Part shown: positions 1 through 20,358 of the stretch, piece by piece | How the letters are laid out: every line of letters begins with the position of its first letter | How positions within the stretch are numbered: position 1 is the first letter of the stretch | Source of the DNA: Escherichia phage muut | Length of the DNA stretch: 64,000 nucleotides | Sequence record: NC_052657.1 | Strand: one strand, 5' to 3' | Notes under the pieces: model-generated | Told to the model about the DNA's origin: nothing | Database searches by the model: none | Seen by the model: only the letters and a program-made list of their open reading frames with translations | Program-made: the position numbers and the translations under genes

Positions 1-2
1 GC

Positions 3-884
3 TTCCTGTCTTCTATTGTAGCTGGTCGTGTTACACCAGAAGAATATGAAGATGTTGCATATTATACCGTTCTAACTATTGATAATGTTATTGAAACAAT
101 GCAGTATCCGTTTAAACATAACGAAATCACTGCTAAAGCACGTAGGTCTATCGGTGTAGGTATTACAAACCTGGCACATTATCTGGCAAGTAATTTTGTT
201 ACTTATTCAGATCCTTACGGCAAAAAACTAATTCACGAATTAGCAGAAAGACATTATTACTGGTTAGCAAGAGCTTCTCTTCGTTTGGCAAAAGAGAAAG
301 GTAATGCAGAATGGATGCATAAAACCAAATGGCCTGAAGGATGGTTGCCTATTGATACCTACGCTAAAGCTGTAGACGATATTGGCAATTTTAAACTTAA
401 AATGGATTGGGAAGGTTTACGACAAGATATCATTGCACAAGGTGGTATCCGAAATAGCGTATTAGCAGCTATTGCTCCAAATGAGTCCAGTAGTCTTGTA
501 AGTAATACGACTAACTCTGTGTATCCTGTACGTGATACTATAGTTTATAAACAAAGCCAAAAGGGTAATGTTCTGTTTATTGTGCCAGACTACGATAAAC
601 TAAAAGATATTTACCAATCGGCTTGGGATACACCAGATAAAGATATGGCTGAAGCATATGGACTGTTGACTAAATTCTTAGATCAAGGTGCATCATGTGA
701 TAAGTGGATTGACTATTCTAAGATGGAAGGTGGTCGTTTATCCATTAAATCAGAAATGCAATATATTCTTCAGTTTGCAAAACTTGGTGGTAAATCTTTG
801 TACTATCTAAATAGCAGAACAAAATCGGCAACCTCACTCGCTCAAGAGGATGAAGAATCCGGTTGTGAGGCTTGTAAGATGTAA
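3..884 (+). CDS. nrdA: Ribonucleotide reductase class Ia large subunit, C-terminal part (5' end outside window)
   Basis: Frame open from window start; C-terminal CxxC tail (ESGCEACKM) typical of NrdA; followed by nrdB. Confidence 0.8.
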   Translation, partial: FLSSIVAGRVTPEEYEDVAYYTVLTIDNVIETMQYPFKHNEITAKARRSIGVGITNLAHYLASNFVTYSDPYGKKLIHELAERHYYWLARASLRLAKEKGNAEWMHKTKWPEGWLPIDTYAKAVDDIGNFKLKMDWEGLRQDIIAQGGIRNSVLAAIAPNESSSLVSNTTNSVYPVRDTIVYKQSQKGNVLFIVPDYDKLKDIYQSAWDTPDKDMAEAYGLLTKFLDQGASCDKWIDYSKMEGGRLSIKSEMQYILQFAKLGGKSLYYLNSRTKSATSLAQEDEESGCEACKM

Positions 885-924
885 TGAAACTAGGGGGCTT
901 TGTCCCCCTTTCTTAAGGAGGAAT

Positions 925-1260
925 ATGCCTACATTAGTTGTATTACCTGGGGCAACACCACAAAGACGCTGGGGAAATTATACACTGGTAGATAGTAAAG
1001 ATTTTACATTCGATTGGTGTTGTCATTATATTGCAGGTTTTCAATTTTCCAGTGTTGAAATATGGGCTTCCAATGATCCCATAGCTACCTGGTATGCTTT
1101 AACCAGAGCAAGGTATGAGGGAGAGGTTACTATACTACTCACAAAGAGTGTATGGGACGCATTAGAGAAGGCTTACCTAGAGGATGGTATGGAGAGAGAA
1201 CACATTGATACAATAAAAGCAATGTGTGATATTGTGGAGGATTTAAATGGCAGCAATTAA
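925..1260 (+). CDS. hypothetical protein (111 aa)
   Basis: ATG at 925 preceded by AAGGAGG; ORF-track start 850 lies inside nrdA. Confidence 0.5.
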   Translation: MPTLVVLPGATPQRRWGNYTLVDSKDFTFDWCCHYIAGFQFSSVEIWASNDPIATWYALTRARYEGEVTILLTKSVWDALEKAYLEDGMEREHIDTIKAMCDIVEDLNGSN

Positions 1261-2332
1261 CTTATACAACGACACTTACAAAGAAGGTTTCTACCCTGTA
1301 TTTTTGGGAGAACAGTTAGGTATTTTTGATTCTATTAATGTAACATACCCAGAAATGCATCGTCTGTACAAACTACAAAAACAGCAAGATTGGGATGAAA
1401 ACGAAGTAAACTTAGATCAGACACGAAAAGATTTCGTAGCTTGTTCTAAAAGCAACTATGATGTTATGATCAAAAACCTATCCTTCCAATGGGAAAATGA
1501 TTCACTTGCTAAATCAATCATCACTTTGTTTGCACCATTTTTAAGCAACAACGAAGCATGTGCAATGATGATGAAGCAATCAGAAATGGAAGTTTTACAC
1601 GCTTTGACATATTCTGAAATTATTCGTCAGTGTATCCCTAATCCAAATGAAGTTATCGATCAGATTATGGAGAATGAAAGAATCTTCCAGAGGATGGGTA
1701 TAGTTGAAGAGATAATGAGTGATCTGGCAGAGGCAGGACATAAATATGCTCTAGGTCTGATTGAGAAGGATGATAACCTTCGTCTACTGATTCTGAAAGG
1801 AATGATTGCACTTATCGGTCTGGAAGGCATTCAATTCATATCATCTTTTGCTGCAACATTTGCCTTAGCAGAGCAGCAACTGTTTGTAGGTGCAGCTAAA
1901 CTCATTCAAAAAATTATGTTGGATGAACTATTGCACGTTAAAATGGATTATGCTATTATTGATGCACTGCTGAAAGATCCTGTCTGGAGAAAAGTATACG
2001 AAGATAATATCGACGTTCTGACAGAAATTCTTGACACAGTAGTTGGACAAGAGGAAGATTGGTGTGACTATCTGTTTAGTGAAGGAAGGATTATCGTTGG
2101 TGGTAACGCAGAGTTGTTCAAACTTTGGGTTTACTTCAATGCTGCGCCTATCTATCGCAGACTGAAAATGAAACACAAATTCCGTGCACCGAAGAAAAGT
2201 CCACTACCTTGGATGGATGTTTGGTTAAATCCAGATCAAATTCAAGCAGCAGCACAGGAGATCCAAATTACAGCTTACAAACTGAATTCAGCAAATAAAG
2301 ACGTAAGTGATGACGAGGAGTTAGACTTTTAA
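1247..2332 (+). CDS. nrdB: Ribonucleotide reductase class Ia small subunit
   Basis: 361 aa; di-iron/tyrosyl-radical region (EGIQFISSFA), position after nrdA. Confidence 0.9.
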   Translation: MAAINLYNDTYKEGFYPVFLGEQLGIFDSINVTYPEMHRLYKLQKQQDWDENEVNLDQTRKDFVACSKSNYDVMIKNLSFQWENDSLAKSIITLFAPFLSNNEACAMMMKQSEMEVLHALTYSEIIRQCIPNPNEVIDQIMENERIFQRMGIVEEIMSDLAEAGHKYALGLIEKDDNLRLLILKGMIALIGLEGIQFISSFAATFALAEQQLFVGAAKLIQKIMLDELLHVKMDYAIIDALLKDPVWRKVYEDNIDVLTEILDTVVGQEEDWCDYLFSEGRIIVGGNAELFKLWVYFNAAPIYRRLKMKHKFRAPKKSPLPWMDVWLNPDQIQAAAQEIQITAYKLNSANKDVSDDEELDF

Positions 2333-2550
2333 TGAAACTACTTTGTGTTGGATTAATTTCTGACTTCAAAGACGTTTTCGAAAAGGGAGCCTCTTATGAG
2401 GCTTCCGAATTACAGAATGGTTTCTGTGATGTTTACGGTAAACGTTTAAAAAAGAATGGTGATCATTGGCTAGGAGTTATGTCTTGCGGTCACATTATAG
2501 TTAATGGTGTAGCCAAGTTTGAAATTATCAAAGGAGAAAAAGATGATTGA
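2332..2550 (+). CDS. hypothetical protein (72 aa)
   Basis: ORF start overlaps nrdB stop; no motif recognised. Confidence 0.4.
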   Translation: MKLLCVGLISDFKDVFEKGASYEASELQNGFCDVYGKRLKKNGDHWLGVMSCGHIIVNGVAKFEIIKGEKDD

Positions 2551-2725
2551 TTTTGTTGATGTAGATATTAATTCTGACTTAACAGAAGATGAAGGTGGCG
2601 CTTTTGTGTGTTCAGATGGGGAAAAATGTTTTACTCTGATGGTAGAAACTTATGATGGTATCACAGAAATTCTGTTAACAGAGAATGAGTTAAAACAGAT
2701 GTTAGAAAAGATTGAGGAGCTTTAA
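2543..2725 (+). CDS. hypothetical acidic protein (60 aa)
   Basis: ATG with AAAGGAG RBS 24 nt inside ORF-track ORF 2519..2725. Confidence 0.45.
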   Translation: MIDFVDVDINSDLTEDEGGAFVCSDGEKCFTLMVETYDGITEILLTENELKQMLEKIEEL

Positions 2726-2727
2726 TA

Positions 2728-2874
2728 ATGGATGATGTAAGTATTTGTCCTATCTGCGGCGGCACTGGGAATTTTATTGTTAGTATGGAACAATTTATTC
2801 CTTGTTGGAATTGTAACGGCTTAGGTTTCGTTCATACAGAAGAAAAAGAAGAAGAGGAAGATAGTGGGAGTTGA
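2728..2874 (+). CDS. small zinc-ribbon protein (48 aa)
   Basis: CPICGG...CWNCNG two CxxC pairs; below the ORF-track size cut-off. Confidence 0.4.
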   Translation: MDDVSICPICGGTGNFIVSMEQFIPCWNCNGLGFVHTEEKEEEEDSGS

Positions 2875-3190
2875 TATTGCATGGCGTATGTTACAGGGTG
2901 CACCTTTTAATAAATGGGAAGAGGCTGTAGGAGAAGATCCTAGAATTGAAGAAGAATTTGATGGAGATTTTAATTGGTTCTTACAAGAAGGTCTTGATTT
3001 AAGCCGTATCTCACCTTTCTATGACGCTGATGCATCTTATTGCATATATGGGATTTATTTAGAAGGTGGCGAAGGAAGTATAGCTGTAGATCTTGAGCAA
3101 CTAAATAAGAATGCAAAAGAAGCCTACGCACAACTTCTTGAAAAATATAACATTGAAACGGAAACTATTATTTCTCAACACGTTTGGTAA
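2864..3190 (+). CDS. hypothetical protein (108 aa)
   Basis: GTG start with GAGGAA RBS; alternative ATG at 2888. Confidence 0.4.
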   Translation: MGVDIAWRMLQGAPFNKWEEAVGEDPRIEEEFDGDFNWFLQEGLDLSRISPFYDADASYCIYGIYLEGGEGSIAVDLEQLNKNAKEAYAQLLEKYNIETETIISQHVW

Positions 3191-3203
3191 GGAGGATAGT
3201 AGA

Positions 3204-3401
3204 ATGATGCTAGATCAACTGATCAATGCTCCTCGCGTAACAGTAAGTCCAAAAACATTTGCATCACTTTTAGAAGATGCTAGAGAGGTTTATAACTTTA
3301 CTGAAGAAGAGCTTCCTGTTCCTGTTAAAAAAGGTTCCAGATGGTTGTTTTATGAAGGTATTATTTTTACTGAAGGGAATAATTGGAAGGAGACTAAATG
3401 A
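3204..3401 (+). CDS. hypothetical protein (65 aa)
   Basis: ATG preceded by AAGGAGG; ORF-track 3111 start overlaps previous gene. Confidence 0.5.
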   Translation: MMLDQLINAPRVTVSPKTFASLLEDAREVYNFTEEELPVPVKKGSRWLFYEGIIFTEGNNWKETK

Positions 3402-4387
3402 AATACTTAGTAACAGGTGGTTTAGGCTTTATTGGAAGTGCGGTAGTTCGTTTCCTGGCTAAAAACACTAAGAATGATATTTACGTTATAGATAAATGGG
3501 GTTACGCTTCAGACCCTAGAAATTTATCAGAAACACCTAATGTAAAGTTTTGTCGTGTTGACTTGACAAATGCTCAGTTAACTGCTAAGATTGTGGCAGA
3601 TGTTAATCCAGATTATATAATGCATCTTGCAGCAGAAAGTCACGTAGATAATTCAATAGCATCACCGAGTGTTTTTATAAATTCAAATATTGTTGGAACA
3701 TTTAATCTTCTAGAAGCTGTTCGTTTAATGGGAGATAAATCAAATCTTAAAATGTTTCATCATATTTCAACAGATGAAGTGTATGGTGATCTGGAAGAAG
3801 GGGATTATCCGTTTACAGAACAGAATCCTTATAAGCCAAGTAGTCCATATGCTGCATCTAAGGCAGCAAGCGATCATTTGGTAAGAGCGTGGCATCGTAC
3901 TTATGGTATTCCGACAGTTATAACAAATTGTTCAAATAATTTTGGAGCGTATCATCATCCAGAAAAACTAATACCTAAAACGATAACAAATATTTTGATG
4001 CATAAACCAATCCCTGTTTATGGCAATGGTCTTCAAGTAAGAGATTGGTTATACGTTGACGATCACGCAGAAGCATTACACCTAGTAGTAACTAAAGGCA
4101 AATCTGGAGAAACATATAATATTGGGAGCAGAAACCCTAGAACTAATATTGATGTAATCTATATGATTTGTGATTATATGGATGCGGTGTATCCATCTGA
4201 AACAGATGCTTGTAGCCTCATTGAGATGGTTACAGATAGGCCTGGGCATGATTTAAGATATGAAGTGAATCCTTATAAGATTGAAAAGGAATTAGGGTGG
4301 AAAGCTAAAGGCACATTTGAAGAAAAACTTTATTCAACCATTGATTGGTATGTAGATAACAAAGAGTGGTGGGAAAATAAAGTTTAA
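3398..4387 (+). CDS. rmlB: dTDP-glucose 4,6-dehydratase
   Basis: 329 aa; N-terminal GGLGFIGS Rossmann motif, YAASK catalytic YxxxK. Confidence 0.9.
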
Positions 4388-4395
4388 GGAGGAGT

Positions 4396-5265
4396 ATGAA
4401 AGGTATTATCTTAGCAGGTGGTAGTGGAACAAGACTTTACCCAGTTACTAAAGGGGTTAGTAAACAACTATTACCAATTTACGATAAACCTATGATTTAT
4501 TATCCACTCTCTGTCCTAATGCTTTCTGGAATTAGGGAAATACTAATAATTACGACACCAGAAGATCAAATTAATTTTGTAAATCTTCTAGGTGATGGTT
4601 CTTCTTTTGGTATTTCCCTACAGTATGCAATACAGGACAACCCAAAAGGTTTAGCAGAAGCGTTTATTATTGGTGAGAGCTTTATTGGTGAAGATTCTGT
4701 AGCACTTGTTCTAGGTGATAATTTGTTCTTTGGTCAGAGTTTTGGTAGCATTTTAGATTCTGCTAAAGAACATATTGAAAAGAATGGTGGAGCTAATATT
4801 TTTGGGTATCACGTAAATGATCCTGAAAGATTTGGTGTTGTTGAGTTTGATTCTGAAGGTACAGTGGTAAGTATTGAAGAAAAACCAAAAGCACCAAAAA
4901 GCAATTATGCAATTACAGGCTTGTACTTTTACGATAATTCTGTTATACAGAAAGCTAAAAGCGTTAAACCTTCTGCTAGAGGGGAATTAGAGATCACAGA
5001 TATAAATGAGATGTACTGGAAAGAAAAGACTTTACGTGTCTGTAAACTAGGAAGAGGTTTCACTTGGCTGGATACAGGAACACATGAAAGTCTTATGGAA
5101 GCATCTCAATTTGTTCATGCAATAGAAAAGCAACAAGGTATGAAGGTTGCATGCCTGGAAGAGATTGCTTTTAAAAATGAATGGATTACTTTAGACTCTG
5201 TAAAAAGTTCTGGAGAGGTTTTAAGTAAAACAGACTACGGTAAGTATTTACTTAAATTAAAATAA
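4396..5265 (+). CDS. rmlA: glucose-1-phosphate thymidylyltransferase
   Basis: 289 aa; N-terminal [14 protein letters not shown] nucleotidyltransferase signature. Confidence 0.9.
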
Positions 5266-5277
5266 AGGGGGAATTAA

Positions 5278-5832
5278 ATGATTCAAGCAACAAAAATCGA
5301 AGATTTGTTGATCATTCAACCTGACGTTTACGGAGATGAACGTGGTTTTTTCTTAGAAAGTTTTAATCAGGCTTTATATGATCAATACATAGGTAAACAA
5401 AACTTTGTCCAAGATAACCATTCACGTTCTATTCGAGGAGTTCTACGTGGGCTTCATTTTCAAAAGAAAAACCCACAAGGGAAGTTAGTACGTTGTGTTC
5501 GTGGTGAAGTTTATGATGTTGCTGTAGATATTAGGGTTGATAGTCCAACATTTGGAGAATGGGTAGGTGTTCTCTTATCTGAAAAGAATAAAACACAATT
5601 TTGGATTCCTCCTGGTTTCGCTCATGGCTTTGTTGTGATTAGTGACATTGCTGATTTTGAATATAAATGTACAGAATATTACGATCCGACTTCAGAGTGT
5701 AGTCTTGCGTGGAATGATCCAGATATCAATATTGATTGGGGTTTTGATTTAATCTTTAATGATATTAATTTTAAACCTATCTTGTCACAAAAAGATCAGG
5801 AAGCCAAAACACTAAAGGAGATCATATTTTGA
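5278..5832 (+). CDS. rmlC: dTDP-4-dehydrorhamnose 3,5-epimerase
   Basis: 184 aa cupin-type; RGLHFQ and DERGFFLE segments typical of RmlC. Confidence 0.85.
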   Translation: MIQATKIEDLLIIQPDVYGDERGFFLESFNQALYDQYIGKQNFVQDNHSRSIRGVLRGLHFQKKNPQGKLVRCVRGEVYDVAVDIRVDSPTFGEWVGVLLSEKNKTQFWIPPGFAHGFVVISDIADFEYKCTEYYDPTSECSLAWNDPDINIDWGFDLIFNDINFKPILSQKDQEAKTLKEIIF

Positions 5833-6659
5833 CAAAATTTTTAATCTTTGGTTCAAAAGGTCAATTAGGACAATCTTTGGCAAAAGTTGCACCAGAAGAT
5901 GTTATTTTGATTGAAGCAAGTGATATAGACATTACCAACTTTAAAGATGTTATGAATAGTCTTGTACAGCACGTGCCTGATGTTGTTGTGAATTGTGCGG
6001 CTTACACGGCAGTAGATAAAGCTGAAGAAGATGTTAACACCTGTATAAATGTTAATGCATACGGTGCAACAAACATTGCCAAAGCATGTAATGATTTACT
6101 GATACAGTTTGTACATATTTCAACAGACTATGTTTTTGATGGGCATGTTGCTGGCACAGAAGATAGTAAAACAAACCCCTTGAACACCTACGGTTACAGT
6201 AAACAATTAGGTGAAACTTTAGTACAAACAGTTTGTCCTACAGCACTTATTATCAGAACAGCTTCTGTTTATAGTGAATTTGGACATAACTTTTTGAAAA
6301 CTATGTTGGAACGCTACAACGGTGGTCAAAAAGAATTTAATGTAGTATGTGATCATTTATCATGTCCTACTTATGCACCTGATCTTGCAGAAACAATTTT
6401 TAAACTTGTAAAAGATGGTGTAAATAGTAAAATTGTACACTATGCAGGTGCAGATTATATTTCTTGGTATGATTTTGCACGAAAGATATTTCTTGTTATA
6501 GATTTATCTGTTACAGTTAATCCTGTATCTGCTTCAACCTATAATTCCAAAGCAGTCAGACCAGCAACATCTTATTTAAAAACAGATCCTACTTTAAATC
6601 CGCGAAGTGTTGATAGCGGTATTGTAAGAACTTTAACTATACTTTTAAACAAGGAGTGA
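5829..6659 (+). CDS. rmlD: dTDP-4-dehydrorhamnose reductase
   Basis: 276 aa; N-terminal FGSKGQLGQ Rossmann motif; last gene of rml operon order. Confidence 0.8.
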   Translation: MTKFLIFGSKGQLGQSLAKVAPEDVILIEASDIDITNFKDVMNSLVQHVPDVVVNCAAYTAVDKAEEDVNTCINVNAYGATNIAKACNDLLIQFVHISTDYVFDGHVAGTEDSKTNPLNTYGYSKQLGETLVQTVCPTALIIRTASVYSEFGHNFLKTMLERYNGGQKEFNVVCDHLSCPTYAPDLAETIFKLVKDGVNSKIVHYAGADYISWYDFARKIFLVIDLSVTVNPVSASTYNSKAVRPATSYLKTDPTLNPRSVDSGIVRTLTILLNKE

Positions 6660-6922
6660 AAATGAATTTTATTATCTACGGTAAACCAAATTGTCCTTTC
6701 TGCACTAACGCTAAGATTCTACTAGAACAGCGTGAACAGGATTTTAAATACCTTACCTTAGATGAAGACTATTCTTTAGATCAGATTCAGACTCTGGTCT
6801 TAGAGAAAACAGGTGTTCTACCACGTACATTTCCTCAGATTTTTGTGGAAGATGGTGAACAGCTAACCCACGTAGGAGGTTTTTCTGAACTACGTGAATT
6901 CATGGCTCAGATTGCGGAGTAA
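6656..6922 (+). CDS. nrdC: glutaredoxin/thioredoxin-like redoxin (RNR hydrogen donor)
   Basis: 88 aa; CPFC active site; GGF near C-terminus. Confidence 0.8.
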   Translation: MKMNFIIYGKPNCPFCTNAKILLEQREQDFKYLTLDEDYSLDQIQTLVLEKTGVLPRTFPQIFVEDGEQLTHVGGFSELREFMAQIAE

Positions 6923-6926
6923 CAAT

Positions 6927-7070
6927 ATGAAAGGTAAACAGAAACGTAAGATCTTTTCTCGTGCTTTGGCAACAGAGCTTAAGTCCCAAACTAAAAAGAC
7001 GAAGCCTAAACGTGAAATGTCTCCTGAACACCTACTGTTTCAAGAGCTAGATCATGGGGAGGGCGACTAA
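6927..7070 (+). CDS. small basic protein (47 aa)
   Basis: ATG 4 nt after nrdC stop; lysine/arginine rich; below ORF-track cut-off. Confidence 0.3.
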   Translation: MKGKQKRKIFSRALATELKSQTKKTKPKREMSPEHLLFQELDHGEGD

Positions 7071-7082
7071 TATAAGGAAAAC

Positions 7083-7583
7083 ATGGCTAAAGTAGTTGAT
7101 GTGTTTGATATGTTACGTTTTGATGAAGGACTAAAGCTAACTGTATATCCTGATACCGAAGGGTATTGGACAGTTGGTATTGGACACCTTCTGACAAAAC
7201 TCAAAGATAAAGCAGAAGCTATACGTATTCTTGATAACTTAGTAGGTAGAAAAACCAATGGGGTTATTACTGAAGCGGAAGCTAGAAGAATCTTTGAGAG
7301 TGACGTAAAGAAAGCGATACAACAAATCCATTCAAGTGCCATATTATCTCCTATTTACGATAAAGTAAGTCCTAATCGTAAAATGGCTATTATTAATATG
7401 GTATTTCAAATGGGATTGAAAGGTGCAGAATCTTTCAAAAATAGCTTGACTTTAGTGAGTAATTCATATTATACTCAAGCCTCTATAAATTTACGTAAAA
7501 GTAAATGGTATCGCCAAACGCCTAATCGCGCAGAGCGTGTAATTCAGGTACTTAAAACTGGAACATTAGACGCTTATAACTAA
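7083..7583 (+). CDS. e: T4-type lysozyme (endolysin)
   Basis: 166 aa; FDMLRFDEGLKL...DTEGYWTVGIGHLLTK matches T4 gpe N-terminus with catalytic Glu/Asp/Thr. Confidence 0.9.
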   Translation: MAKVVDVFDMLRFDEGLKLTVYPDTEGYWTVGIGHLLTKLKDKAEAIRILDNLVGRKTNGVITEAEARRIFESDVKKAIQQIHSSAILSPIYDKVSPNRKMAIINMVFQMGLKGAESFKNSLTLVSNSYYTQASINLRKSKWYRQTPNRAERVIQVLKTGTLDAYN

Positions 7584-7585
7584 AC

Positions 7586-7607
7586 AAAGGGGCGAAAGCC
7601 CCTTTTA
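7586..7607 (+). terminator. rho-independent terminator
   Basis: GGGGC-GAAA-GCCCC hairpin followed by TTTT. Confidence 0.6.
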
Positions 7608-7621
7608 TAAGGAGTGCAAAC

Positions 7622-8374
7622 ATGGGAAATAAAACCGCAAAGGCTCGTCGTCAATCAGCAGCCAATGATGACAAACGTGCCAGTCGTTATGCGGCTAAAG
7701 CAGTAGGAAATGATGATTACCGTCTTGATGAATTTACCCCTGTTGGGAATCAAGAAGCTATTGTAAGAAGCATGGTTTGGAATGATTTAACCATTGTTAA
7801 TGCCCCAGCAGGAACAGGAAAAACGACAACAGCACTATGGAAAGCATTGCAAATGCTTAAAGCTGGTGATTTCAGAAAGTTGATTTTCCTTAAAAACCCG
7901 ACAGAAGTAGGTGATGATCAAATTGGTTTCTTATCTGGAGATAAGACTGATAAACTAGCAGCACATTACGAATCAACTAAAAGAATTTTCCAACAGTTTA
8001 TGACTGCAAATAAATTGGAAAACGATATTGCAAGTGGCAAAATTGAACTTAATATTCCAAACTATGCACTAGGTGCTACGTGGGATAACAGCATTATTCT
8101 TATTGATGAAGTTCAACTTATGTCACCAAATACAGTAAAACTTCTCCTTGAGCGAGCAGGTCTTAATACACGTATTGTCATTATGGGTGATGTTAATCAA
8201 ACATATGCAATTAAACGAAGAGCTAATGGGTTAGGTGATTTGTTAGATCGTGTTGTTCCTATTAACGAAGAAGGAGAAAGGGAAGCTATTGTAGATTTTA
8301 TTGGTTATGTTGAAATGACAACTGCTGATAACCAACGTTCCCGTTTGTCTCAGTTCATCACGGAAGTATATTAA
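7622..8374 (+). CDS. phoH: PhoH-like ATPase
   Basis: 250 aa; Walker A GTGKTTTA; size and context as in T4-like phages. Confidence 0.85.
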   Translation: MGNKTAKARRQSAANDDKRASRYAAKAVGNDDYRLDEFTPVGNQEAIVRSMVWNDLTIVNAPAGTGKTTTALWKALQMLKAGDFRKLIFLKNPTEVGDDQIGFLSGDKTDKLAAHYESTKRIFQQFMTANKLENDIASGKIELNIPNYALGATWDNSIILIDEVQLMSPNTVKLLLERAGLNTRIVIMGDVNQTYAIKRRANGLGDLLDRVVPINEEGEREAIVDFIGYVEMTTADNQRSRLSQFITEVY

Positions 8375-8410
8375 TAATTACAAGGCAAGGATGCCTGTTA
8401 TGGAGGTTAA

Positions 8411-8902
8411 ATGACGCTAATTGAGATTGATCGCAATGGTATTGATGAATGCTATCAAGCTGGCTTAGTTAAGCCGAATGAGTTTAGACAGATTTATATT
8501 GACAAGATTGAAAAAGAAATATCTCTTCGTTTAGAGAACATGGCAACTTTGCAAAAAGTTCAGATGTTTTTTAGTTGGTTGAAAGGAGAGGATTGGCTAA
8601 CTAAATATTACCAGGAATTATCTGATAGTCAAGAAGGCTTGTTTGAGTGTATAATAAATGTAGCTGGGTCTAATTCAGAGTTACTCCTGATTGATGAAGA
8701 AGATTCTAAACTTCTTTTTCTTAGCAGTATTTTTCACAAGAAATCTATGTTAGTAAGAAATTGCAGTGATTTACTAAATCATCCACTAACAAGAACTAAT
8801 AAAATTCTTGTGGATAAAGAAACACTAAGAGCTATTGATTACCTCCGTAAATATGTAAGCGGTGGTAAAGCAGTCCTTAAAACACTACAGGAGGAAGTAT
8901 AA
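8411..8902 (+). CDS. hypothetical protein (163 aa)
   Basis: GGAGG RBS; no motif recognised. Confidence 0.5.
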   Translation: MTLIEIDRNGIDECYQAGLVKPNEFRQIYIDKIEKEISLRLENMATLQKVQMFFSWLKGEDWLTKYYQELSDSQEGLFECIINVAGSNSELLLIDEEDSKLLFLSSIFHKKSMLVRNCSDLLNHPLTRTNKILVDKETLRAIDYLRKYVSGGKAVLKTLQEEV

Positions 8903-9555
8903 TGACAACAATTATTGCAACACGTAACAAAATTTTGTCTGACGGTAAGGTAACAGTAGGTAGTCGTGTAGACACTTTAAACTTCAAGAAAGTGCGTAAA
9001 ATTGGGGACTACCTTGTTGGTGGTGCAGGACGTCTGTCTTCTATCCTGACTTTCTTTTCTTGGTTTGAACAAAACTTACAATGCCAGGCAGCACAAGAGA
9101 CAATCCCAGGTTTGGTGATCCAGTCAGATCCCGATAAAGAAGATGAAGAGTTTGTGGCATTGGTTGTTCATCCAGACGGTAAAATTTATATGCACGAGGG
9201 TAATAATCCAACGCGAGCATATCCTTTAACTGAAGATTATTATGCTGTTGGTAGTGGGGCAGATTTTGCTTTAGCAGCTTTAGATGCAGGGGCAACTCCA
9301 GAAGAAGCGATGGAAGTTGCAAAACTGCGAGATGCTTTTTCCGGCGGTGAAACTTTTATCGAAGAGATCGAAGAACAACTGGAGTTAACAGCGGAAGATA
9401 TTCTGAACTTCAGCAAGGAGCAACTAATTAGTATGCTGTTGACTGGTGATCCTGATAGCGATGAAGCTGAAAGTATTTTAGCAGAAATGAAAGAATCACA
9501 AGAAAAAGTATTGACAGTCTCTGAAAAACTTGATAAAGTGTCCTCTGATAATTAA
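8902..9555 (+). CDS. HslV/proteasome-beta-like peptidase
   Basis: N-terminal MTTII (Thr nucleophile after Met), GG.G and AVGSGADFALAAL segments. Confidence 0.5.
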   Translation: MTTIIATRNKILSDGKVTVGSRVDTLNFKKVRKIGDYLVGGAGRLSSILTFFSWFEQNLQCQAAQETIPGLVIQSDPDKEDEEFVALVVHPDGKIYMHEGNNPTRAYPLTEDYYAVGSGADFALAALDAGATPEEAMEVAKLRDAFSGGETFIEEIEEQLELTAEDILNFSKEQLISMLLTGDPDSDEAESILAEMKESQEKVLTVSEKLDKVSSDN

Positions 9556-9595: not shown

Positions 9596-10024
9596 ATGTT
9601 ACCAGTACCTGTAACCTTTGTAGAAAAAGCCTACTACTCTTTAGAACAAAACTGTAAAAGAGCTAAAAATTTTATTGAAAGTTTAGCAGAACAGCGTTAC
9701 ACTGTATCTAAAAAGGGATGGTTCAGAACTTCACAATATTCAGTCAACCCTTTCGGAGAAGTTCGTGTGTTGTACGGCAACACAGAAAATATCTTAGAAA
9801 GAATGTTAGAACTAGATAGGATCTCCTCCTGTGATTATCAACTGTTGAAATTTTACGATGTGTCAGAAAACATTAAAAACTTTCTTGACGATTTATGTAA
9901 ACGAAAAACAGAAGAAGATACAATACCAGTATCTATGGAAGAATTAACGTTCTTAAGAGATATTATGGTTTTTGAAGAAAACCCTGAAATCACAAAAGAG
10001 GAGATTTTAAGTAGTGGCAAATAA
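9596..10024 (+). CDS. hypothetical protein (142 aa)
   Basis: GGAGG RBS; no motif recognised. Confidence 0.5.
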   Translation: MLPVPVTFVEKAYYSLEQNCKRAKNFIESLAEQRYTVSKKGWFRTSQYSVNPFGEVRVLYGNTENILERMLELDRISSCDYQLLKFYDVSENIKNFLDDLCKRKTEEDTIPVSMEELTFLRDIMVFEENPEITKEEILSSGK

Positions 10025-10523
10025 GTATGATCGTCCACCAACTGATTACTATCCTACTCCACAAAAATGTATAAATGCATTATTTAGTGTAATAGATTTT
10101 AATAACCTTAAAGAAGAAGGTTTTATTTTTGCAGAACCGTGTAAAGGCGCTGCTGCTGCAATTTATCAACATTTTCCAGAAGGATCAGAATATTGTGAGT
10201 TAGAAGAAGGGAAGGATTATTTTAACCACGAATGGCATACTAAGCCGGATATTATAATCACAAATCCACCATTCAGACTTGCACTTGAGTTCTTGCAAAA
10301 GAGCTTAAAAGAAGCAGACGTTTGCATATACTTGTTGCGTCTTGGGTTCCTAGAGTCTATTAAACGAAGGGAATTCCATAAACAGAACCCACCAACAAAT
10401 TTGATTGTTCTTTCTGAACGACCATCTTTTGTTGCAGGTGGTACTGATAAGACAGCATATGCTTGGTACGTCTACGACCCAAAAAACAGGCTGGGTTTAA
10501 CTCAACCTTTCTATTTTGTTTAA
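10014..10523 (+). CDS. dam: DNA N6-adenine methyltransferase (small phage Dam type)
   Basis: 169 aa; IITNPPF motif IV; YYPTP N-terminal segment. Confidence 0.6.
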   Translation: MANKYDRPPTDYYPTPQKCINALFSVIDFNNLKEEGFIFAEPCKGAAAAIYQHFPEGSEYCELEEGKDYFNHEWHTKPDIIITNPPFRLALEFLQKSLKEADVCIYLLRLGFLESIKRREFHKQNPPTNLIVLSERPSFVAGGTDKTAYAWYVYDPKNRLGLTQPFYFV

Positions 10524-11027: not shown

Positions 11028-11690
11028 ATGAAGTTTGTACTGTATCATCGACTTTCTAAGAAGAAACAACAAGGCAACCAGTATGGTATAGAATCACAGG
11101 AAGCAGATATCCAACGCTTCCTGGATTCACAAGAAAATTATACTATTGTAGGTAGCTTTGCAGAGTTTTATTCTGGTAAAGGCGATTGGAAGCAACGTAG
11201 AGAGCTTGTAAAAGCTGTTAATCTTTGCAAAGAAACAGGTGCTACACTTGTTGTTGCTAAGGTTGACCGTCTTGGACGTAACACAGCTTCTGTTGCAACC
11301 TTGTTAGAGATGATTAATGTACGGATAGCCACTATGCCCTCCGCTGAAAATATGATAATAAATATTTTAGCAGTTCTGGCAGAAGAAGAGGCTCGTGCAA
11401 TATCTGATCGTGTTAAGAAGAGCCTTAAGGTAGCAAAAGCGAAGGGAACGCTTCTTGGTGCAGCAAACCCTAAATACAAAAGAACAGATTATACGAAAAC
11501 GGAAGAAGCAAAACGCTCAAAAGAGTTTGCACTTTCTTTAAAAGATTCTTTAGTTGCATACAGAGCTTGTAAAACGCCATATATGACGATTGCAAAGCAT
11601 CTGAATGAATCAGGAAAGAGAACTATTCGTGGGAGTTTGTTCGATGCCAAAGCGGTACAACGTCTTTGTGCAAAATTGAATATTAAATAA
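11028..11690 (+). CDS. serine recombinase (resolvase/invertase family)
   Basis: 220 aa; YHRLSKKKQ (catalytic Ser), SGKG...R, VVAKVDRLGRN motifs. Confidence 0.7.
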   Translation: MKFVLYHRLSKKKQQGNQYGIESQEADIQRFLDSQENYTIVGSFAEFYSGKGDWKQRRELVKAVNLCKETGATLVVAKVDRLGRNTASVATLLEMINVRIATMPSAENMIINILAVLAEEEARAISDRVKKSLKVAKAKGTLLGAANPKYKRTDYTKTEEAKRSKEFALSLKDSLVAYRACKTPYMTIAKHLNESGKRTIRGSLFDAKAVQRLCAKLNIK

Positions 11691-15733: not shown

Positions 15734-16723
15734 ATGAAAGTTTTAAGTCTTTTTGATGGTATGTCAGGAGGAATGCTTGCGCTAAAAAGTGCAGGTATTG
15801 AAGTAGATACATATTACGCTTCAGAATTAGACAAATTTGCCGTAGCTGAAAGCCAAGCAAATTTTCCAGATATTATTCAGTTAGGTGATGTTACAAAATG
15901 GAGAGAATGGGATATCCCGTGGGGAGAAATTGATCTTTTGTTAGGTGGTAGTCCGTGTCAAGGCTTCTCTTCTTCTGGTAAGGGTTTGAACTTTCAAGAT
16001 CCGCGATCTAAGTTATTCTTCGAATATGTTGAAATTCTTGAACATATTAAAAAGTTTAATCCTAATGTTAAGTTCATGCTTGAAAACGTTAAGATGAAAG
16101 TGGAGTGGGAAAACGTGATCACAAGTTACTTAGGTGTTGATCCCGTATTCATTAACTCCGCAGATTTCACGGCACAGAATAGACAACGTTTATACTGGTG
16201 CAACTGGGAAATAAAACCCTGGGAGATTACCAATGAAGTGTTGCAAGATATCATTGAAGATGATAGTATTGTAGACAGAGATAAGGCTTATTGCATAGAT
16301 GCAAATTATGCCAAAGGTGGTAATATAGAACAGTATTTTGAAAAGAGTCGCAGACAACTGGTTTTTTATCCGGCAGCAATATATGGGCGTAGAATTAATG
16401 AAAATGGCAAACGTAGTACATCTAAAACTGATCGTTTGGTACATTGTTTGGAAGTTCAGGACAGTGAAAAAACTCGTTGCCTCACGACTGTGCCTAAAGA
16501 CGTACTATTAGCCTACATTCCACCTGGAAGATATCTAGATGCTTTTGAAAAATTGAGTGAAGGCGTACATTATAGAAAGTTAACGGTTAAAGAGTGTTGC
16601 CGCTTGCAAGGTGTGCCAGATGATTACTTTAAAGTGAGTAGTAACACACAAGCATATAAGATGTTAGGTAACGGTTGGACTATACCTGTCATTGCACATA
16701 TTCTTAAATGTATGGAGGAATAG
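15734..16723 (+). CDS. dcm: DNA cytosine-5 methyltransferase
   Basis: LFDGMSGG (motif I), GSPCQGFS (motif IV PCQ), ENV (motif VI), GNGWTIPV (motif X). Confidence 0.85.
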   Translation: MKVLSLFDGMSGGMLALKSAGIEVDTYYASELDKFAVAESQANFPDIIQLGDVTKWREWDIPWGEIDLLLGGSPCQGFSSSGKGLNFQDPRSKLFFEYVEILEHIKKFNPNVKFMLENVKMKVEWENVITSYLGVDPVFINSADFTAQNRQRLYWCNWEIKPWEITNEVLQDIIEDDSIVDRDKAYCIDANYAKGGNIEQYFEKSRRQLVFYPAAIYGRRINENGKRSTSKTDRLVHCLEVQDSEKTRCLTTVPKDVLLAYIPPGRYLDAFEKLSEGVHYRKLTVKECCRLQGVPDDYFKVSSNTQAYKMLGNGWTIPVIAHILKCMEE

Positions 16724-16846: not shown

Positions 16847-17458
16847 ATGACTCAAAAAGTTGCATATCAAGTAGATCGTGAAGACGGTGAAGGTAGTGTT
16901 GTAGTTTTTGATACACATGGTCTTGCAGCAAGACGCAAAGGTGCTTGTCTACTGGACATTGGTGGTGAAGATGAATACTGCACTGTACGTAGAGTAAAAG
17001 AATTTGATCAATATGCTGAAAAAGGTTTTGTACCTGCAAAAGCACTATTAGAAGCTGGATGGTGGATACCTAGTGCACATGATTATGATATTTTGGAATC
17101 AGATACAGACGATTTTAACAGTGAAGATTTTGTTTTTTCTCTGGATGAAAAATGCGTTTGGAAAGATTGGGATGAAATGGAACGCCATGCTTATTTTATA
17201 AACGAAGCATTAGATCGTAAAACTTGGTTTGAGAATACAGTTAAAGCAGCGTATCCTCAATTTACTTTTACAGAATTTTGGGGTGGCCCACACCATATTA
17301 CTCATGTGGCATACTTCGAGTTCCCAGGCTCACGCTATAAAGGTACTGTCTATTGGGATTGGGACGAGGACAAAGAACCTTCTGCTCAAGACTTCCGTTG
17401 CTATGTTTGTCAAGGTGATCAAGAAGCCCTTGACAAGTACCTTAAAAGTCTGGTATAA
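16847..17458 (+). CDS. hypothetical protein (203 aa)
   Basis: ORF only. Confidence 0.5.
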   Translation: MTQKVAYQVDREDGEGSVVVFDTHGLAARRKGACLLDIGGEDEYCTVRRVKEFDQYAEKGFVPAKALLEAGWWIPSAHDYDILESDTDDFNSEDFVFSLDEKCVWKDWDEMERHAYFINEALDRKTWFENTVKAAYPQFTFTEFWGGPHHITHVAYFEFPGSRYKGTVYWDWDEDKEPSAQDFRCYVCQGDQEALDKYLKSLV

Positions 17459-17475
17459 TCCGTAAAACTTAACCA

Positions 17476-17499
17476 AAGCCCCAAGCAGGGGCTTTATTT
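17476..17499 (+). terminator. rho-independent terminator
   Basis: AAGCCCC-AAGCA-GGGGCTT then TATTTG. Confidence 0.6.
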
Positions 17500-17512
17500 G
17501 TCTGGAGGATAT

Positions 17513-18046
17513 ATGGGTTTTGATGACATGTTATTATATGAGGAGGCTTGTGTGAAAGAAGCTATGGCTTTACCAGTTTTATCTATTGATATTACAACAG
17601 TAGACACTTTTTCAGATTGTGAAACGTGTGGATCGTATTCGTCTATTGTACATGAAGTTAGTGGGGATTTAGGCACTTACGAAGATGGAGATTATGCAAG
17701 TTGTTTAGGTGATAATCGAGATGGTGAAGTGGCGAATGTTGCAAACTGGATTGCTTCTAAGTTAAAAGAAAGAAATCGTCCGTTCCCTAATCTTCTTACA
17801 CCAGAAGCTATGCTTAAAGCTGAACAAGAGATGTATGATTATGGTTATAAAGTAGATTATGACTATAATGATCCTAAATATAAAAAATTGAGTGACAAGT
17901 ATTGGGAACTAGCTAATGCTTATGATAAATACTACTCTACAGAAAACATTGTTAAATTGTTTTTAGATTTTGGAGTAGAAATTAATTGGGATTTCGAAGA
18001 GGAAGAGCGTTACGACGCATCTTCTTGGGAGGACGAGGGTGAATGA
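17513..18046 (+). CDS. hypothetical acidic protein (177 aa)
   Basis: ATG with GGAGGA RBS 15 nt inside ORF-track ORF. Confidence 0.5.
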   Translation: MGFDDMLLYEEACVKEAMALPVLSIDITTVDTFSDCETCGSYSSIVHEVSGDLGTYEDGDYASCLGDNRDGEVANVANWIASKLKERNRPFPNLLTPEAMLKAEQEMYDYGYKVDYDYNDPKYKKLSDKYWELANAYDKYYSTENIVKLFLDFGVEINWDFEEEERYDASSWEDEGE

Positions 18047-18783
18047 TAGAACGAAAACCCTTACCAGATAGAGATTACTTGTTATCAAGGTTTAGTGTGG
18101 AGAATGGTCGTCTTGTTTGGAAACCTAAACCTTCTACAACAAAAGAGAACAAAAGGTGGAATAGCAGATACGCAGGGAAGATTGCAGGGACTATTGATAA
18201 AGCTGGTTACTCTCATGTCAAAATAGATGGTATTGTATACTTGGAGCACAGAGTTTGTTTTAAAATGTATCATAATTACTGTCCAGATGTTATAGACCAT
18301 GATGACGGCAATAAACTTAATAATGCGGAAAGTAATTTATTGGATAGTAACTATTTATTAAATAATAACAATAGACACGTGGATGGGTTAGAAGGTATTT
18401 ATGAAAAGGATGGTGTTTTTCTTTGGGTTATAAACTACAACCAAGAAACTTTCTCTGTTTCAGGTTTCAAAACTAAAGAGGAAGCTATTGTAGCTAGAGC
18501 TTTAGCAAAACAAGAAATTTTGAAAGGATCTTATATCAAAAAAGAAAAGAAGCGTATAGATAACACTTCAGGATTAAGCTGTGTGTTTGTGGCAACAAGA
18601 GAGAGAACATTCTTTTTCAAGTTTGTGTTTGACAAGATCACGTATTGCAAATATGGTTTCAACGATCCAGAGAGATGTGCTATAGCTCTGGAGAAACTAA
18701 GATTGAAGGTGATGAAAGAAAAATATAAACCTGCAAATAAAAGCATTTGCGAAAAATATAAGGAGGAGATTTATGCCGCGTAG
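18043..18783 (+). CDS. HNH homing endonuclease with AP2-type DNA-binding domains
   Basis: GY..V.IDG..YLEHRV...IDHDDGNKLNN HNH_3 pattern; two AP2-like repeats. Confidence 0.55.
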   Translation: MIERKPLPDRDYLLSRFSVENGRLVWKPKPSTTKENKRWNSRYAGKIAGTIDKAGYSHVKIDGIVYLEHRVCFKMYHNYCPDVIDHDDGNKLNNAESNLLDSNYLLNNNNRHVDGLEGIYEKDGVFLWVINYNQETFSVSGFKTKEEAIVARALAKQEILKGSYIKKEKKRIDNTSGLSCVFVATRERTFFFKFVFDKITYCKYGFNDPERCAIALEKLRLKVMKEKYKPANKSICEKYKEEIYAA

Positions 18784-19588
18784 AGTCATATTCATAACTG
18801 GTGCAGGACTATCTGTGGATAGCGGTATCCCAGCTTTTAGAACAGATACTTCTTCAGGGAAGGCGTTATGGTCTTCTTATGATCTTTTTGAGGTCTGTGA
18901 CATTTTCAACTTCCGTGACGGTTATCAGCAAGAACAAGGTGTTCTTGATGCTATGGGTGGTTTAGATGCAGAAGGATATAACCTCTACCGTAAAACTCAC
19001 GACTTTTACAATAAACGTCGCGTGGAATTAGAGAAAGTTGACCCGAATCCAGCACATCTTCAGATTGGAGAATGGTTCAAAAAATATGGCCCAGAACGAA
19101 TTATTAACATTACTACTAACGTGGATGACCTCCTTGAACGAGCAGGAGTAGATAGGGAAGAAGTGCTACATGTGCACGGTTTTCTTCCTGAAATTACTTT
19201 TCAAAGAAAAGCTGGACAACCTACAATTGTAAAAGATGTTGGTTATCAAGCCATAGATGTAGATGACTACCATTATGTAAAACCTAATGTAATTTTCTTT
19301 GGGGAAGCTGCTCCACTTTACACGGATATGTATCATATTTTTGATACTTTGACCATGCAAGATTTGGTTGTTGTAGTAGGATGTTCAAACCAAGTTATCA
19401 ATTTTAATTGGGAATTATTCCCTGCACTTAATATGGGTACAAAAATGATCGTTGTTAACCCAGGAATTAATTACGAAGAAACTCTTCTTTACGAAGACAG
19501 AGGAGTTTTTGTTTATCGAGAAAAGGCCGCAGATGCTTTTAGCAATCCTGCTTTCATAAAAATGATAGAAGATCATTTGACTAAGTAA
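18773..19588 (+). CDS. Sir2-family NAD-dependent deacylase/ADP-ribosyltransferase-like protein
   Basis: ITGAGLSVDSGIPAFR, ITTNVDDLLERAG, VVVGCS motifs. Confidence 0.75.
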   Translation: MPRRVIFITGAGLSVDSGIPAFRTDTSSGKALWSSYDLFEVCDIFNFRDGYQQEQGVLDAMGGLDAEGYNLYRKTHDFYNKRRVELEKVDPNPAHLQIGEWFKKYGPERIINITTNVDDLLERAGVDREEVLHVHGFLPEITFQRKAGQPTIVKDVGYQAIDVDDYHYVKPNVIFFGEAAPLYTDMYHIFDTLTMQDLVVVVGCSNQVINFNWELFPALNMGTKMIVVNPGINYEETLLYEDRGVFVYREKAADAFSNPAFIKMIEDHLTK

Positions 19589-19595
19589 CTTGACC

Positions 19596-19616
19596 AAGGG
19601 GCGAAAGCCCCTTTTC
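19596..19616 (+). terminator. rho-independent terminator
   Basis: GGGGC-GAAA-GCCCC then TTTT (same hairpin as after lysozyme). Confidence 0.6.
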
Positions 19617-19631
19617 TTATAGGAGAATATT

Positions 19632-19889
19632 ATGACCACAGAACAAATCGTTAAAGACCATTTTATGATGCACTACGTTTATTACTTCAATAATAATCAA
19701 CAGAAAGGTGAGGGATTTTGTTATCTATCCGCACAACAAGGTTTTGGTATCCGTCAAGCAGATATTAACGGAGCAGTGGCTGGAATTACAAAAGGCTTGG
19801 TTGCAAACCTTAAAGATAATGTTGTTGTTGTCCCAACGTGCATCTCTTATCTCTCAACCTGCCCTGAAGAAGATTTTATGCATTCCTAA
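19632..19889 (+). CDS. hypothetical protein (85 aa)
   Basis: GGAG RBS. Confidence 0.5.
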   Translation: MTTEQIVKDHFMMHYVYYFNNNQQKGEGFCYLSAQQGFGIRQADINGAVAGITKGLVANLKDNVVVVPTCISYLSTCPEEDFMHS

Positions 19890-19956
19890 AACCTCCTGTA
19901 ACGCATTCTAACGCACTTTTTATTTTAGTAATACGTTTCCCTATCTAATGCAAACA

Positions 19957-19991
19957 AAAGCCCCTAGAATCACTTCTAGGGGTTTTATTTT
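19957..19991. terminator. bidirectional terminator at convergence of rightward and leftward blocks
   Basis: CCCCTAGAA-TCAC-TTCTAGGGG hairpin flanked by A-run and T-run. Confidence 0.45.
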
Positions 19992-20064
19992 AGTCTTCTG
20001 TAAAATATCCTATGACAACAATGATAAAGATGATTAACACTACGATACTCTCTAGTAAAGTCAT

Positions 20065-20286: not shown

Positions 20287-20332
20287 AATACCTCCTATTG
20301 TTTATGCTAAGACAAATAAAAACACACATACA

Positions 20333-20358
20333 AGAAAACCCGCCGAAGCGGGTTTATG
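20333..20358 (-). terminator. rho-independent terminator
   Basis: AAACCCGC-TTCG-GCGGGTTT then TTCTTG on minus strand. Confidence 0.5.

Follow-up and report, generated by a model that had tools for sequence, protein, structure and literature searches.

The 64,000-nucleotide stretch of Escherichia phage muut analysed here (sequence record NC_052657.1; hereafter the window) carries at positions 3398-6659 an intact set of genes for the synthesis of deoxythymidine diphosphate (dTDP)-L-rhamnose, in the order rmlB-rmlA-rmlC-rmlD, the activity of the four enzymes being predicted from their sequences. Taking the explanation as a whole, we consider it probable that these genes are a working copy of the bacterial pathway and serve as an auxiliary metabolic module of a virulent phi92-like phage. 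RmlA would join glucose-1-phosphate and deoxythymidine triphosphate (dTTP), RmlB would convert the product to dTDP-4-keto-6-deoxy-D-glucose, RmlC would epimerise C3 and C5, and RmlD would reduce C4 to give dTDP-L-rhamnose. RmlC and RmlD would be the part indispensable to the lineage while RmlA and RmlB only raise the flux, as every enterobacterial host would supply the 4-keto intermediate via RffH/RffG or its own RmlA/RmlB. The dTDP-L-rhamnose is likely the donor for a phage glycosyltransferase module outside the window. Two small DxD-containing GT-A enzymes of this module are likely to act as inverting rhamnosyltransferases, and its two GT4-like GT-B paralogues probably use common host uridine diphosphate (UDP)-sugars. 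Together they may assemble a short glycan that contains rhamnose. Its acceptor would be accessible from the cytoplasm, and for this acceptor we would rank a virion protein ahead of a host envelope glycan, and the latter ahead of sparse, motif-limited sites in DNA.

The rml region is identical at 3261 of 3262 bases to that of Escherichia phage vB_EcoM_ESCO9 (hereafter ESCO9; Justusliebigvirus), and is 95-100% identical in nucleotide sequence to 54 phage records, including phi92, alia, EmilieFrey and PaulScherrer. The window belongs to Justusliebigvirus, of the phi92-like Stephanstirmvirinae, and the near-identity of its rml region to that of ESCO9 is consistent with the virulent lifestyle assumed in the original prediction, which had been made from the sequence alone. 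The rml clusters of phi92, phAPEC8 and other Stephanstirmvirinae have the same genes, order and locus as the window, and nothing essential differs between them. The pathway in these phages is already known, having been in print since 2020, and more than 50 GenBank records carry annotations of its enzymes. It was described by Olsen et al. (2020), who called its location among DNA metabolism genes 'peculiar' and proposed rhamnosylation of hydroxymethylated nucleotides (PMC7552041), while Maffei et al. (2021) found such phages 'exceptionally susceptible' to restriction-modification 'despite ... a putative dTDP glycosylation machinery' (PMC8594841). No experimental test of rml function in these phages, enzyme assays and complementation included, was found in the searchable literature. 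What the present analysis adds is the identification of rmlC-rmlD as the core, of a glycosyltransferase module conserved along with it outside the window, and of the recurrence of that module in other phages. The chemistry of the pathway is textbook.

The rml genes and their conserved rmlC-rmlD core

The four genes and the grounds for each call are as follows.

3398-4387, plus strand: rmlB, predicted dTDP-D-glucose 4,6-dehydratase of 329 amino acids (aa); TIGR01181 above cut-off, motifs, and ratio of non-synonymous to synonymous polymorphism (pN/pS)
4396-5265, plus strand: rmlA, predicted glucose-1-phosphate thymidylyltransferase of 289 aa; TIGR01207 above cut-off, motifs, pN/pS
5278-5832, plus strand: rmlC, predicted dTDP-4-dehydrorhamnose 3,5-epimerase of 184 aa; TIGR01221 above cut-off, catalytic motifs
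5829-6659, plus strand: rmlD, predicted dTDP-4-dehydrorhamnose reductase of 276 aa with a TTG start; TIGR01214 above cut-off, motifs

Enzymes were called with NCBIfam equivalog models, which have curated cut-offs, and with Pfam as a second library. RmlB scored 442.5 bits against TIGR01181 (cut-off 365.1), RmlA 471.0 bits against TIGR01207 (360.65), with residues 2-288 of 289 covered, and RmlC 260.1 bits against TIGR01221 (155.75), the sole NCBIfam family that it matched. RmlD scored 253.6 bits against TIGR01214 (224.05) in a match that ends at residue 253 of 276, leaving the C-terminal 23 residues unaligned. As each protein exceeds the cut-off of its own model and the Pfam assignments are concordant, the prediction of all four enzymes in this order stands. 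Based on identities read by eye off the printed alignments, the closest solved structures are S. enterica 1iim for RmlA (~66%), S. enterica RmlB 1g1a (~58%), S. enterica RmlC 1dzr (~64%) and B. anthracis RmlD 3sc6 (~38%), the phage RmlD being closer to the Firmicute than to the enterobacterial enzyme.

In RmlB, aligned to 1g1a, the motifs are the extended short-chain dehydrogenase/reductase (SDR) GGLGFIG (residues 7-13), STDE (124-127; the T-D-E triad) and YAASK (151-155; YxxxK). RmlA, aligned to 1iim, carries GGSGTRL (8-14) as its nucleotide-binding GGxGTRL motif, and its sugar-phosphate- and metal-binding residues are in place, namely the Asp of LGDN (106-109), the Lys of EEKP (161-164) and the Asp of WLDTGT (224-229). 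The cupin active-site motifs of RmlC, RGLHFQ (57-62; His), GKLVRC (68-73; Lys) and YKCTEYY (129-135; Tyr), are conserved relative to 1dzr, and RmlD has STDYVF (98-103; the SDR Thr) and YGYSK (121-125; YxxxK). A Shine-Dalgarno-like sequence lies 5' of every rml start; AAGGAG precedes the TTG start of rmlD, which is overlapped by the rmlC stop. The G+C content of the genes (GC, 34-35%) and that of their third codon positions (GC3, 18-23%) are the same as in the adjacent phage genes.

Pooled within the genus, pN/pS is 0.03 for rmlB, 0.11 for rmlA, 0.06 for rmlC and 0.16 for rmlD; the rml genes are under purifying selection. In phAPEC8 (Phapecoctavirus), the block nrdA-nrdB-small open reading frames (ORFs)-rmlBACD-grx-lysozyme-phoH is kept with proteins 54-72% identical, and because this synteny persists at such identities, the cluster is old in the subfamily and has been maintained. 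The RmlA-D enzymes of the bacterial O-antigen (rfb) clusters of Salmonella enterica and E. coli belong to the same four families and share the same motifs, but the host gene order is B-D-A-C rather than B-A-C-D, and the nucleotide identity of the rml region to any of 5426 complete E. coli genomes is at most ~65%. Given this low identity and the differing gene order, recent capture from the host is ruled out. The phage genes lie amid nucleotide-metabolism genes and not beside O-unit transferases, a flippase or a polymerase. One could still view the genes as neutral passengers, captured from a host and without a role in the phage life cycle, as rmlB and rmlA are deletable in viable isolates. This view is hardly credible in the face of the low pN/pS values, the retention of the locus across genera, the phage-like GC and GC3, and the differences in order and sequence from E. 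coli.

The two halves of the pathway have not been kept equally. Klebsiella phage KP13-26 and Phapecoctavirus ESCO37 have only rmlC-rmlD at the equivalent locus, the absence of rmlBA in ESCO37 having been noted by its authors (PMC10269720). In Justusliebigvirus Eryne, a 545-nt in-frame deletion joins residues 1-310 of RmlB to the last 131 residues of RmlA (from ~159), a fusion that removes the RmlA nucleotide-binding motif and leaves rmlC-rmlD intact. Among Escherichia phage records, tblastn found RmlC in 104 and RmlA in 86, with a stricter E-value limit for RmlA. The conserved core is rmlC-rmlD, and rmlB-rmlA is lost or wrecked in ESCO37, KP13-26 and Eryne. RffH and RffG produce dTDP-4-keto-6-deoxyglucose for enterobacterial common antigen (ECA), and each of the 5426 complete E. 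coli genomes has rml- or rff-like DNA. Most simply, the phage would require dTDP-L-rhamnose, could always get the 4-keto intermediate from its host and would keep RmlA and RmlB for flux; loss of rmlBA fits with hosts providing dTDP-4-keto-6-deoxyglucose.

An RmlC-RmlD unit is also exactly what a pure diversion of precursors would need. Under that scenario, RmlC and RmlD would drain the 4-keto intermediate, which is shared with the ECA pathway, away from ECA (dTDP-Fuc4NAc), or dTDP-rhamnose, by which RmlA is inhibited, would exert feedback inhibition on RmlA/RffH, and pools of thymidine nucleotides or of envelope precursors would be reshaped with no phage glycoconjugate made. The embedding of the cluster among genes for deoxynucleoside triphosphate supply is in keeping with this idea. 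However, most members keep RmlA and RmlB under strong purifying selection, and these two enzymes raise rather than drain the intermediate and consume dTTP that an AT-rich replicating phage needs. Diversion would also leave the co-conserved four-gene glycosyltransferase module unexplained, and we regard it as very improbable.

A glycosyltransferase module in related genomes

The original prediction that no glycosyltransferase is evident in the window is correct for the window itself, where profile searches of all ORFs with phage glycosyltransferase families found none, but misleading for the genome, as related complete genomes encode four. These genes are adjacent (ESCO9_00160-00163, at 78351-81527 of the ESCO9 record; CDS0044-0047 in Eryne), adjoin primase/helicase and DNA polymerase genes, and in ESCO9 coordinates lie ~11 kb past the end of the window. 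All four ESCO9 proteins match PHROGs annotated as glycosyltransferase. The ESCO9_00161 family has invariant FDDD and YGxED motifs, and a homologue with 77% identity, modelled with AlphaFold (pLDDT 89.6), adopts a GT-A fold. This model is structurally closest to STIV A197 among PDB entries and, in BFVD, to GT2-like proteins of phages and megavirus, a megavirus glycosyltransferase being among the best structural matches (TM 0.67). PHROG matches and an RDIDT motif suggest that ESCO9_00160 is a second small GT-A enzyme. The possibility that ESCO9_00160 is the C-terminal half of a split two-domain glycosyltransferase like MooMoo gp94 was rejected, as there is no similarity.

ESCO9_00162 and ESCO9_00163 are paralogues (41% identical), and the model of a 99%-identical ESCO9_00163 homologue (pLDDT 94.9) has a GT4-like GT-B fold with BshA, MshA, GlgM, PglA, GtfC and SdgB as the nearest structures; neither T4 AGT/BGT nor EarP is among the best 50 PDB matches of this model. 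A sequence search of solved structures with the glycosyltransferases gave no meaningful match. Fold was considered as a clue to the acceptor and set aside: the GT-A and GT4-like folds were confirmed, but the enzymes nearest in structure have substrates as varied as small molecules, lipids, proteins and teichoic acids, and thus do not discriminate. Alpha-L-rhamnosides are formed from dTDP-beta-L-rhamnose by inverting enzymes, and for this reason the DxD GT-A proteins would be better rhamnosyltransferase candidates than the GT4-like ones.

The distribution of the glycosyltransferases matches that of rmlC, with GT-A and GT-B each found in 105 Escherichia phage records and RmlC in 104, and both ESCO37 and Eryne retain the glycosyltransferase genes. 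In every other context examined, unrelated phage contigs included, the GT-B gene lies directly 3' of the GT-A gene. In one divergent phage with the pair an RmlB-like dehydratase is encoded 0.8 kb upstream, in an unrelated small phage the pair heads an operon with terminase, portal and capsid genes, and in another phage a GT-B homologue stands beside a GT2 enzyme, a dehydratase, a DegT aminotransferase and a radical-SAM enzyme. Two of the unrelated phages with the pair have sugar-nucleotide genes nearby. Deoxysugar-nucleotide supply together with a GT-A/GT-B pair looks like a recurring phage module. The divergent relatives FKP3 and Tr1 each encode one solitary distant GT-A homologue in another genomic context.

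A Ter-type tellurite-resistance cluster starts in the window (~62000-64000) and continues in ESCO9 (17000-24000 of one stretch examined), with genes for a ComF-like phosphoribosyltransferase, a HAD phosphatase, TerC, TerD, a vWA-TerF-like protein and TelA. Environmental relatives have the same Ter cluster upstream of the glycosyltransferase genes.

Candidate acceptors

The four transferases appear soluble: inspection of their sequences by eye reveals no hydrophobic segments. The best 25 of 37 Pfam families for the 87 unannotated ESCO9 proteins include no flippase, polymerase, ligase, GtrA/B/C or polyprenyl-phosphate transferase, the ESCO9 and Eryne annotations read list no Wzx/Wzy/WaaL-type or Gtr component, and TerC is the sole integral membrane protein identified. 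As the transferases look soluble and no flippase, polymerase or Gtr component is among those Pfam matches, a cytoplasmic or inner-leaflet acceptor is implied.

A virion protein, or another protein, is our tentative choice, with some probability left for something other than the options considered here. By analogy, virion glycosylation has some support from precedents in mycobacteriophages and giant viruses, from the pair heading a structural operon and from an adhesin neighbour in Burkholderia. In the last case, a Burkholderia dolosa contig encodes at 7205-8440 a GT-B homologue (35% identical) that overlaps the end of a 571-aa ORF; this ORF and a gene for an invasin/intimin-like adhesin lie just 5' of it, a neighbourhood that hints that the GT-B family may glycosylate proteins. 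Freeman et al. (2023) reportedly found virion glycosylation in mycobacteriophage Che8, affecting capsid and tail-tube proteins and involving gp108-110; like the scheme proposed here, it would rely on phage-encoded cytoplasmic glycosyltransferases that act on the phage's own acceptor. Che8 is not known to encode a sugar-nucleotide pathway. GT-A homologues (26-30% identical) do occur in cluster-F and related mycobacteriophages, but those of MooMoo (gp94) and McProf (gp43) belong to a protein family other than Che8 gp108-110. Homology to the Che8 system was considered as support and ruled out, gp108-110 being unrelated. Among giant viruses, mimivirus makes UDP-L-rhamnose and chloroviruses have capsid glycans with the rhamnosyltransferase A064R. 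Like phi92-like phages, these viruses encode both an activated-rhamnose pathway and glycosyltransferases, although theirs is the two-enzyme eukaryote-type UDP-rhamnose route and not the four-enzyme bacterial dTDP route, and their acceptors are known to be capsid and fibrils. It is conceivable, if doubtful, that the Stephanstirmvirinae, both phi92-like and phAPEC8-like, employ dTDP-L-rhamnose of their own making and the conserved GT-A/GT-B pair for the glycosylation of their virion proteins, and that the same module, with other deoxy- or amino-sugar pathways, does so in many unrelated phages.

Several points weigh against a rhamnose pathway that feeds these glycosyltransferases and, through them, a virion glycan. 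Phages without rmlBA are viable, and at least half of the pathway is therefore dispensable in the laboratory. The co-distribution of the glycosyltransferases and rmlC mostly reflects the shared ancestry of one lineage, not independent events, and the two sets of genes are ~67 kb apart in ESCO9 with no common operon. Among GT-B enzymes, those of the GT4 type are as a rule retaining and take alpha-linked donors, which makes them poor candidates for dTDP-beta-L-rhamnose, while the GT-A enzymes carry no specific rhamnosyltransferase signature, the only match being to TIGR01556 in a homologue (19.9 bits against a cut-off of 200). Pairwise BLASTP of ESCO9_00161 with Che8 gp109 and gp110, and of ESCO9_00163 with gp108, gave no significant alignment. 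The searchable literature reports no glycosylation of a virion protein in phi92-like phages and no experiment that ties the rml genes to the glycosyltransferases.

Alternatively, phage or host transferases could use dTDP-rhamnose to alter the surface glycans of the infected cell, such as lipopolysaccharide (LPS) core or O-antigen, which would block superinfection or keep progeny from adhering to debris. These phages recognise surface glycans, namely LPS core, the NGR glycan (first taken for ECA) and capsules, and rhamnose is common in host O-antigen and core, with host rfbBDAC clusters seen in E. coli genomes. The GT4-like enzymes resemble transferases for LPS, teichoic acid and lipid-linked glycans, e.g. 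PglA and TarM, and four transferases would suit the building of an oligosaccharide side chain. Nevertheless, the apparent solubility of the transferases and the export and Gtr components missing from the Pfam families listed make such remodelling unlikely. A lytic cycle would also offer little time for existing outer-membrane LPS to be replaced, and seroconversion systems are typical of temperate, not virulent, phages.

The original prediction named sugar modification of phage DNA as a possible role, as Olsen et al. (2020) had already done (PMC7552041). Under this hypothesis, rhamnose would be put on a modified base to evade nucleases, as T-even phages do with glucose on 5-hydroxymethylcytosine (hmC). 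The rml genes do lie amid nucleotide-metabolism genes (tk, thyX, nrdAB, grx), and the glycosyltransferase genes stand beside primase/helicase and DNA polymerase genes, distant relatives included. Sub-threshold matches to Pfam TAGT (TET-associated glycosyltransferase; best E 1.5e-4) occur in 11 of the 18 GT-A family members, and ESCO9_00161 has a sub-threshold match to the PHROG of the T-even beta-glucosyl-HMC alpha-glucosyltransferase. In addition, the window encodes a C5-cytosine methyltransferase (15734-16723) that, with a TET enzyme, could in principle mark specific sites.

Yet the TAGT and PHROG matches are below the Pfam threshold and span ~40-55 residues round the DxD motif: the TAGT match covers 54 residues and scores 22.1 bits, where the gathering score is 27.5, and that to phrog_842 covers 42 residues with an E-value of 4.5e-5. 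Fold searches yield generic GT-A and GT4 structures. T4 AGT/BGT again lie outside the best 50 PDB matches of the GT-B model, and the best 50 viral matches of the GT-A model name no T-even DNA glucosyltransferase. No enzyme that makes a hydroxyl acceptor, be it a ThyA-family dCMP/dUMP hydroxymethylase or TET/JBP, was found. For TET/JBP and 2-oxoglutarate (2OG) oxygenases this holds among the best 25 of the 37 Pfam families for the 87 unannotated ESCO9 proteins, where very divergent enzymes would escape, and among Pfam matches of the 10 ORFs that surround the C5-methyltransferase. The idea that the methyltransferase has a TET/JBP or hydroxymethylase partner was rejected, as Pfam found none in those neighbouring ORFs and 87 proteins. 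The thymidylate synthase homologue matches Pfam Thy1 (ThyX) and not ThyA, the family that has given rise to hydroxymethylases. In ESCO9, this putative enzyme (1591-2562 of another stretch examined, outside the window) is a long, divergent ThyX-type protein of 323 aa that scores only 36.9 bits against Thy1 over profile positions 59-186, and it bears on the question of DNA modification.

Plating of three phi92-like phages of the BASEL collection showed them to be 'exceptionally susceptible' to type I, II and III restriction (PMC8594841), and their susceptibility and glycosylation machinery are mentioned again in a later paper (PMC10844046). As no hydroxymethylase or TET/JBP was found, the phages are restriction-sensitive and the likeness to DNA glycosyltransferases is sub-threshold and confined to the DxD region, bulk phage DNA is most likely not the acceptor. 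Since a C5-methyltransferase is encoded, a sparse, motif-limited modification could still occur. In all, we judge rhamnosylation of DNA improbable, and it is the least supported of the live options.

A GT-B plus GT-A pair is reminiscent of T2 and T6, in which two glycosyltransferases act in turn. Like the T-even phages (glucosyl-hmC) and RB69 (arabinosyl-hmC), phi92-like phages are virulent myoviruses with glycosyltransferases, and like RB69 they have their own supply route for an unusual sugar donor (PMC6024577). They differ from both in their restriction sensitivity, in the hydroxymethylase or TET enzyme that was not found, in a GT-B model without T4 AGT/BGT among its best 50 PDB matches and in TAGT matches that are only sub-threshold.

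Three enzymes encoded in the window seem to be related to DNA or NAD. The C5-cytosine DNA methyltransferase scores 149.8 bits in Pfam, a Sir2-family protein is encoded at 18773-19588, and a small ORF (10014-10523) with an NPPF motif has no Pfam match while its phAPEC8 homologue is annotated as DNA methyltransferase. It is noteworthy that a phage with its own DNA methyltransferase is reported to be restriction-sensitive.

Gene neighbourhood, relatives and significance

The genes that flank the rml cluster are listed below.

99-884: C-terminus of NrdA, from its translation and homologous ESCO9 and phAPEC8 annotations
1247-2332, plus strand: nrdB, 5' end of the conserved rml-bearing block, from its translation and ESCO9 and phAPEC8 annotations
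2332-3401, plus strand: small ORFs without assigned function in the nrdB-rmlB interval, from the ORF list
6662-6922, plus strand: glutaredoxin gene directly 3' of rmlD, Pfam Glutaredoxin 44.6 bits
7083-7583, plus strand: T4-type lysozyme gene, the last before a stem-loop at 7586-7605, Pfam Phage_lysozyme 46.3 bits
7622-8374: PhoH, named from the ESCO9 annotation

Translations, homologous annotations and Pfam matches bear out the placement of the rml genes, which are tightly packed, between nrdB and the glutaredoxin and lysozyme genes. Small ORFs homologous to those upstream of rmlB occur at the same place in ESCO9, phAPEC8, Eryne and ESCO37, and in the window the final one (3111-3401) overlaps the rmlB start. 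The glutaredoxin gene, which has an alternative GTG start at 6656 overlapping the rmlD stop, adjoins rmlD in all relatives examined. After a terminator-like structure at 893-907, the next is the G+C-rich hairpin at 7586-7605, which the scan called solely on the minus strand, and no terminator-like site was found by the scan between nrdB and rmlB, which share a strand. As the promoter and terminator counts of the scan (positions 1-9000) did not differ from shuffled expectation, the transcription unit is deduced from gene spacing and the two hairpins only.

Outside the rml genes, the window is a 97-98% identical mosaic relative of ESCO9 with several insertions and indels. No single record matches the full window, the best other record covering 92% of a 24-kb test stretch at 97.6% identity; the window represents a new mosaic isolate of Justusliebigvirus. 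Relative to ESCO9 it has insertions at 18043-18783 and 49258-50256, of which one encodes an HNH_3-like protein and the other a protein with HTH_36 and MUG113 (GIY-YIG-like) matches. By their domains the proteins of both insertions are probably homing endonucleases, and the mosaic character of the window is partly due to these HNH_3-like and MUG113 insertions. A UvrD-type helicase ORF (55062-57875) encodes 937 aa in the window and 578 aa in ESCO9. The extra 1.07 kb (~55857-56928) resembles an intein, with slightly sub-threshold matches to Pfam Intein_splicing (34.0 bits) and Hint (28.4 bits), and PaulScherrer is annotated as encoding an 'intein-containing UvrD/Rep helicase precursor'.

Four 'Campylobacter phage' records, A150, A145, C3 and A110a (MG065639, MG065645, MG065656 and MG065689), have rml clusters 98.6% identical to those of E. 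coli Justusliebigvirus and the same glycosyltransferases; their Campylobacter host label is probably wrong, or the phages are contaminants. The rml regions of ECGD1 and Serratia phage KKP_3264 show length differences of 1-4 nt and shortened rmlA or rmlD annotations, which are either sequencing errors or real frameshifts. Elsewhere, the window encodes an HslV/proteasome-like peptidase (8902-9555; a weak Pfam match, annotated HslV in relatives) and a serine recombinase/resolvase (11028-11690; 78.3 bits), the latter unexpected in a phage regarded as strictly virulent. Among the unannotated ESCO9 proteins are some with NADAR, Macro, DUF4326 and nSTAND-NTPase-like domains, candidates for counter-defence functions such as the reversal of ADP-ribosylation.

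The phages concerned have a broad host range and are candidates for therapy, and selection maintains in them two to four genes for sugar nucleotides along with four for glycosyltransferases. If the acceptor is DNA, these genes would make a new base modification, and if it is the host envelope, they would provide a virulent phage with a device to control superinfection or adsorption. If it is the virion, the module would bear on immune recognition and stability of therapeutic phages, and these would be the first glycosylated virions among phages of Gram-negative bacteria.

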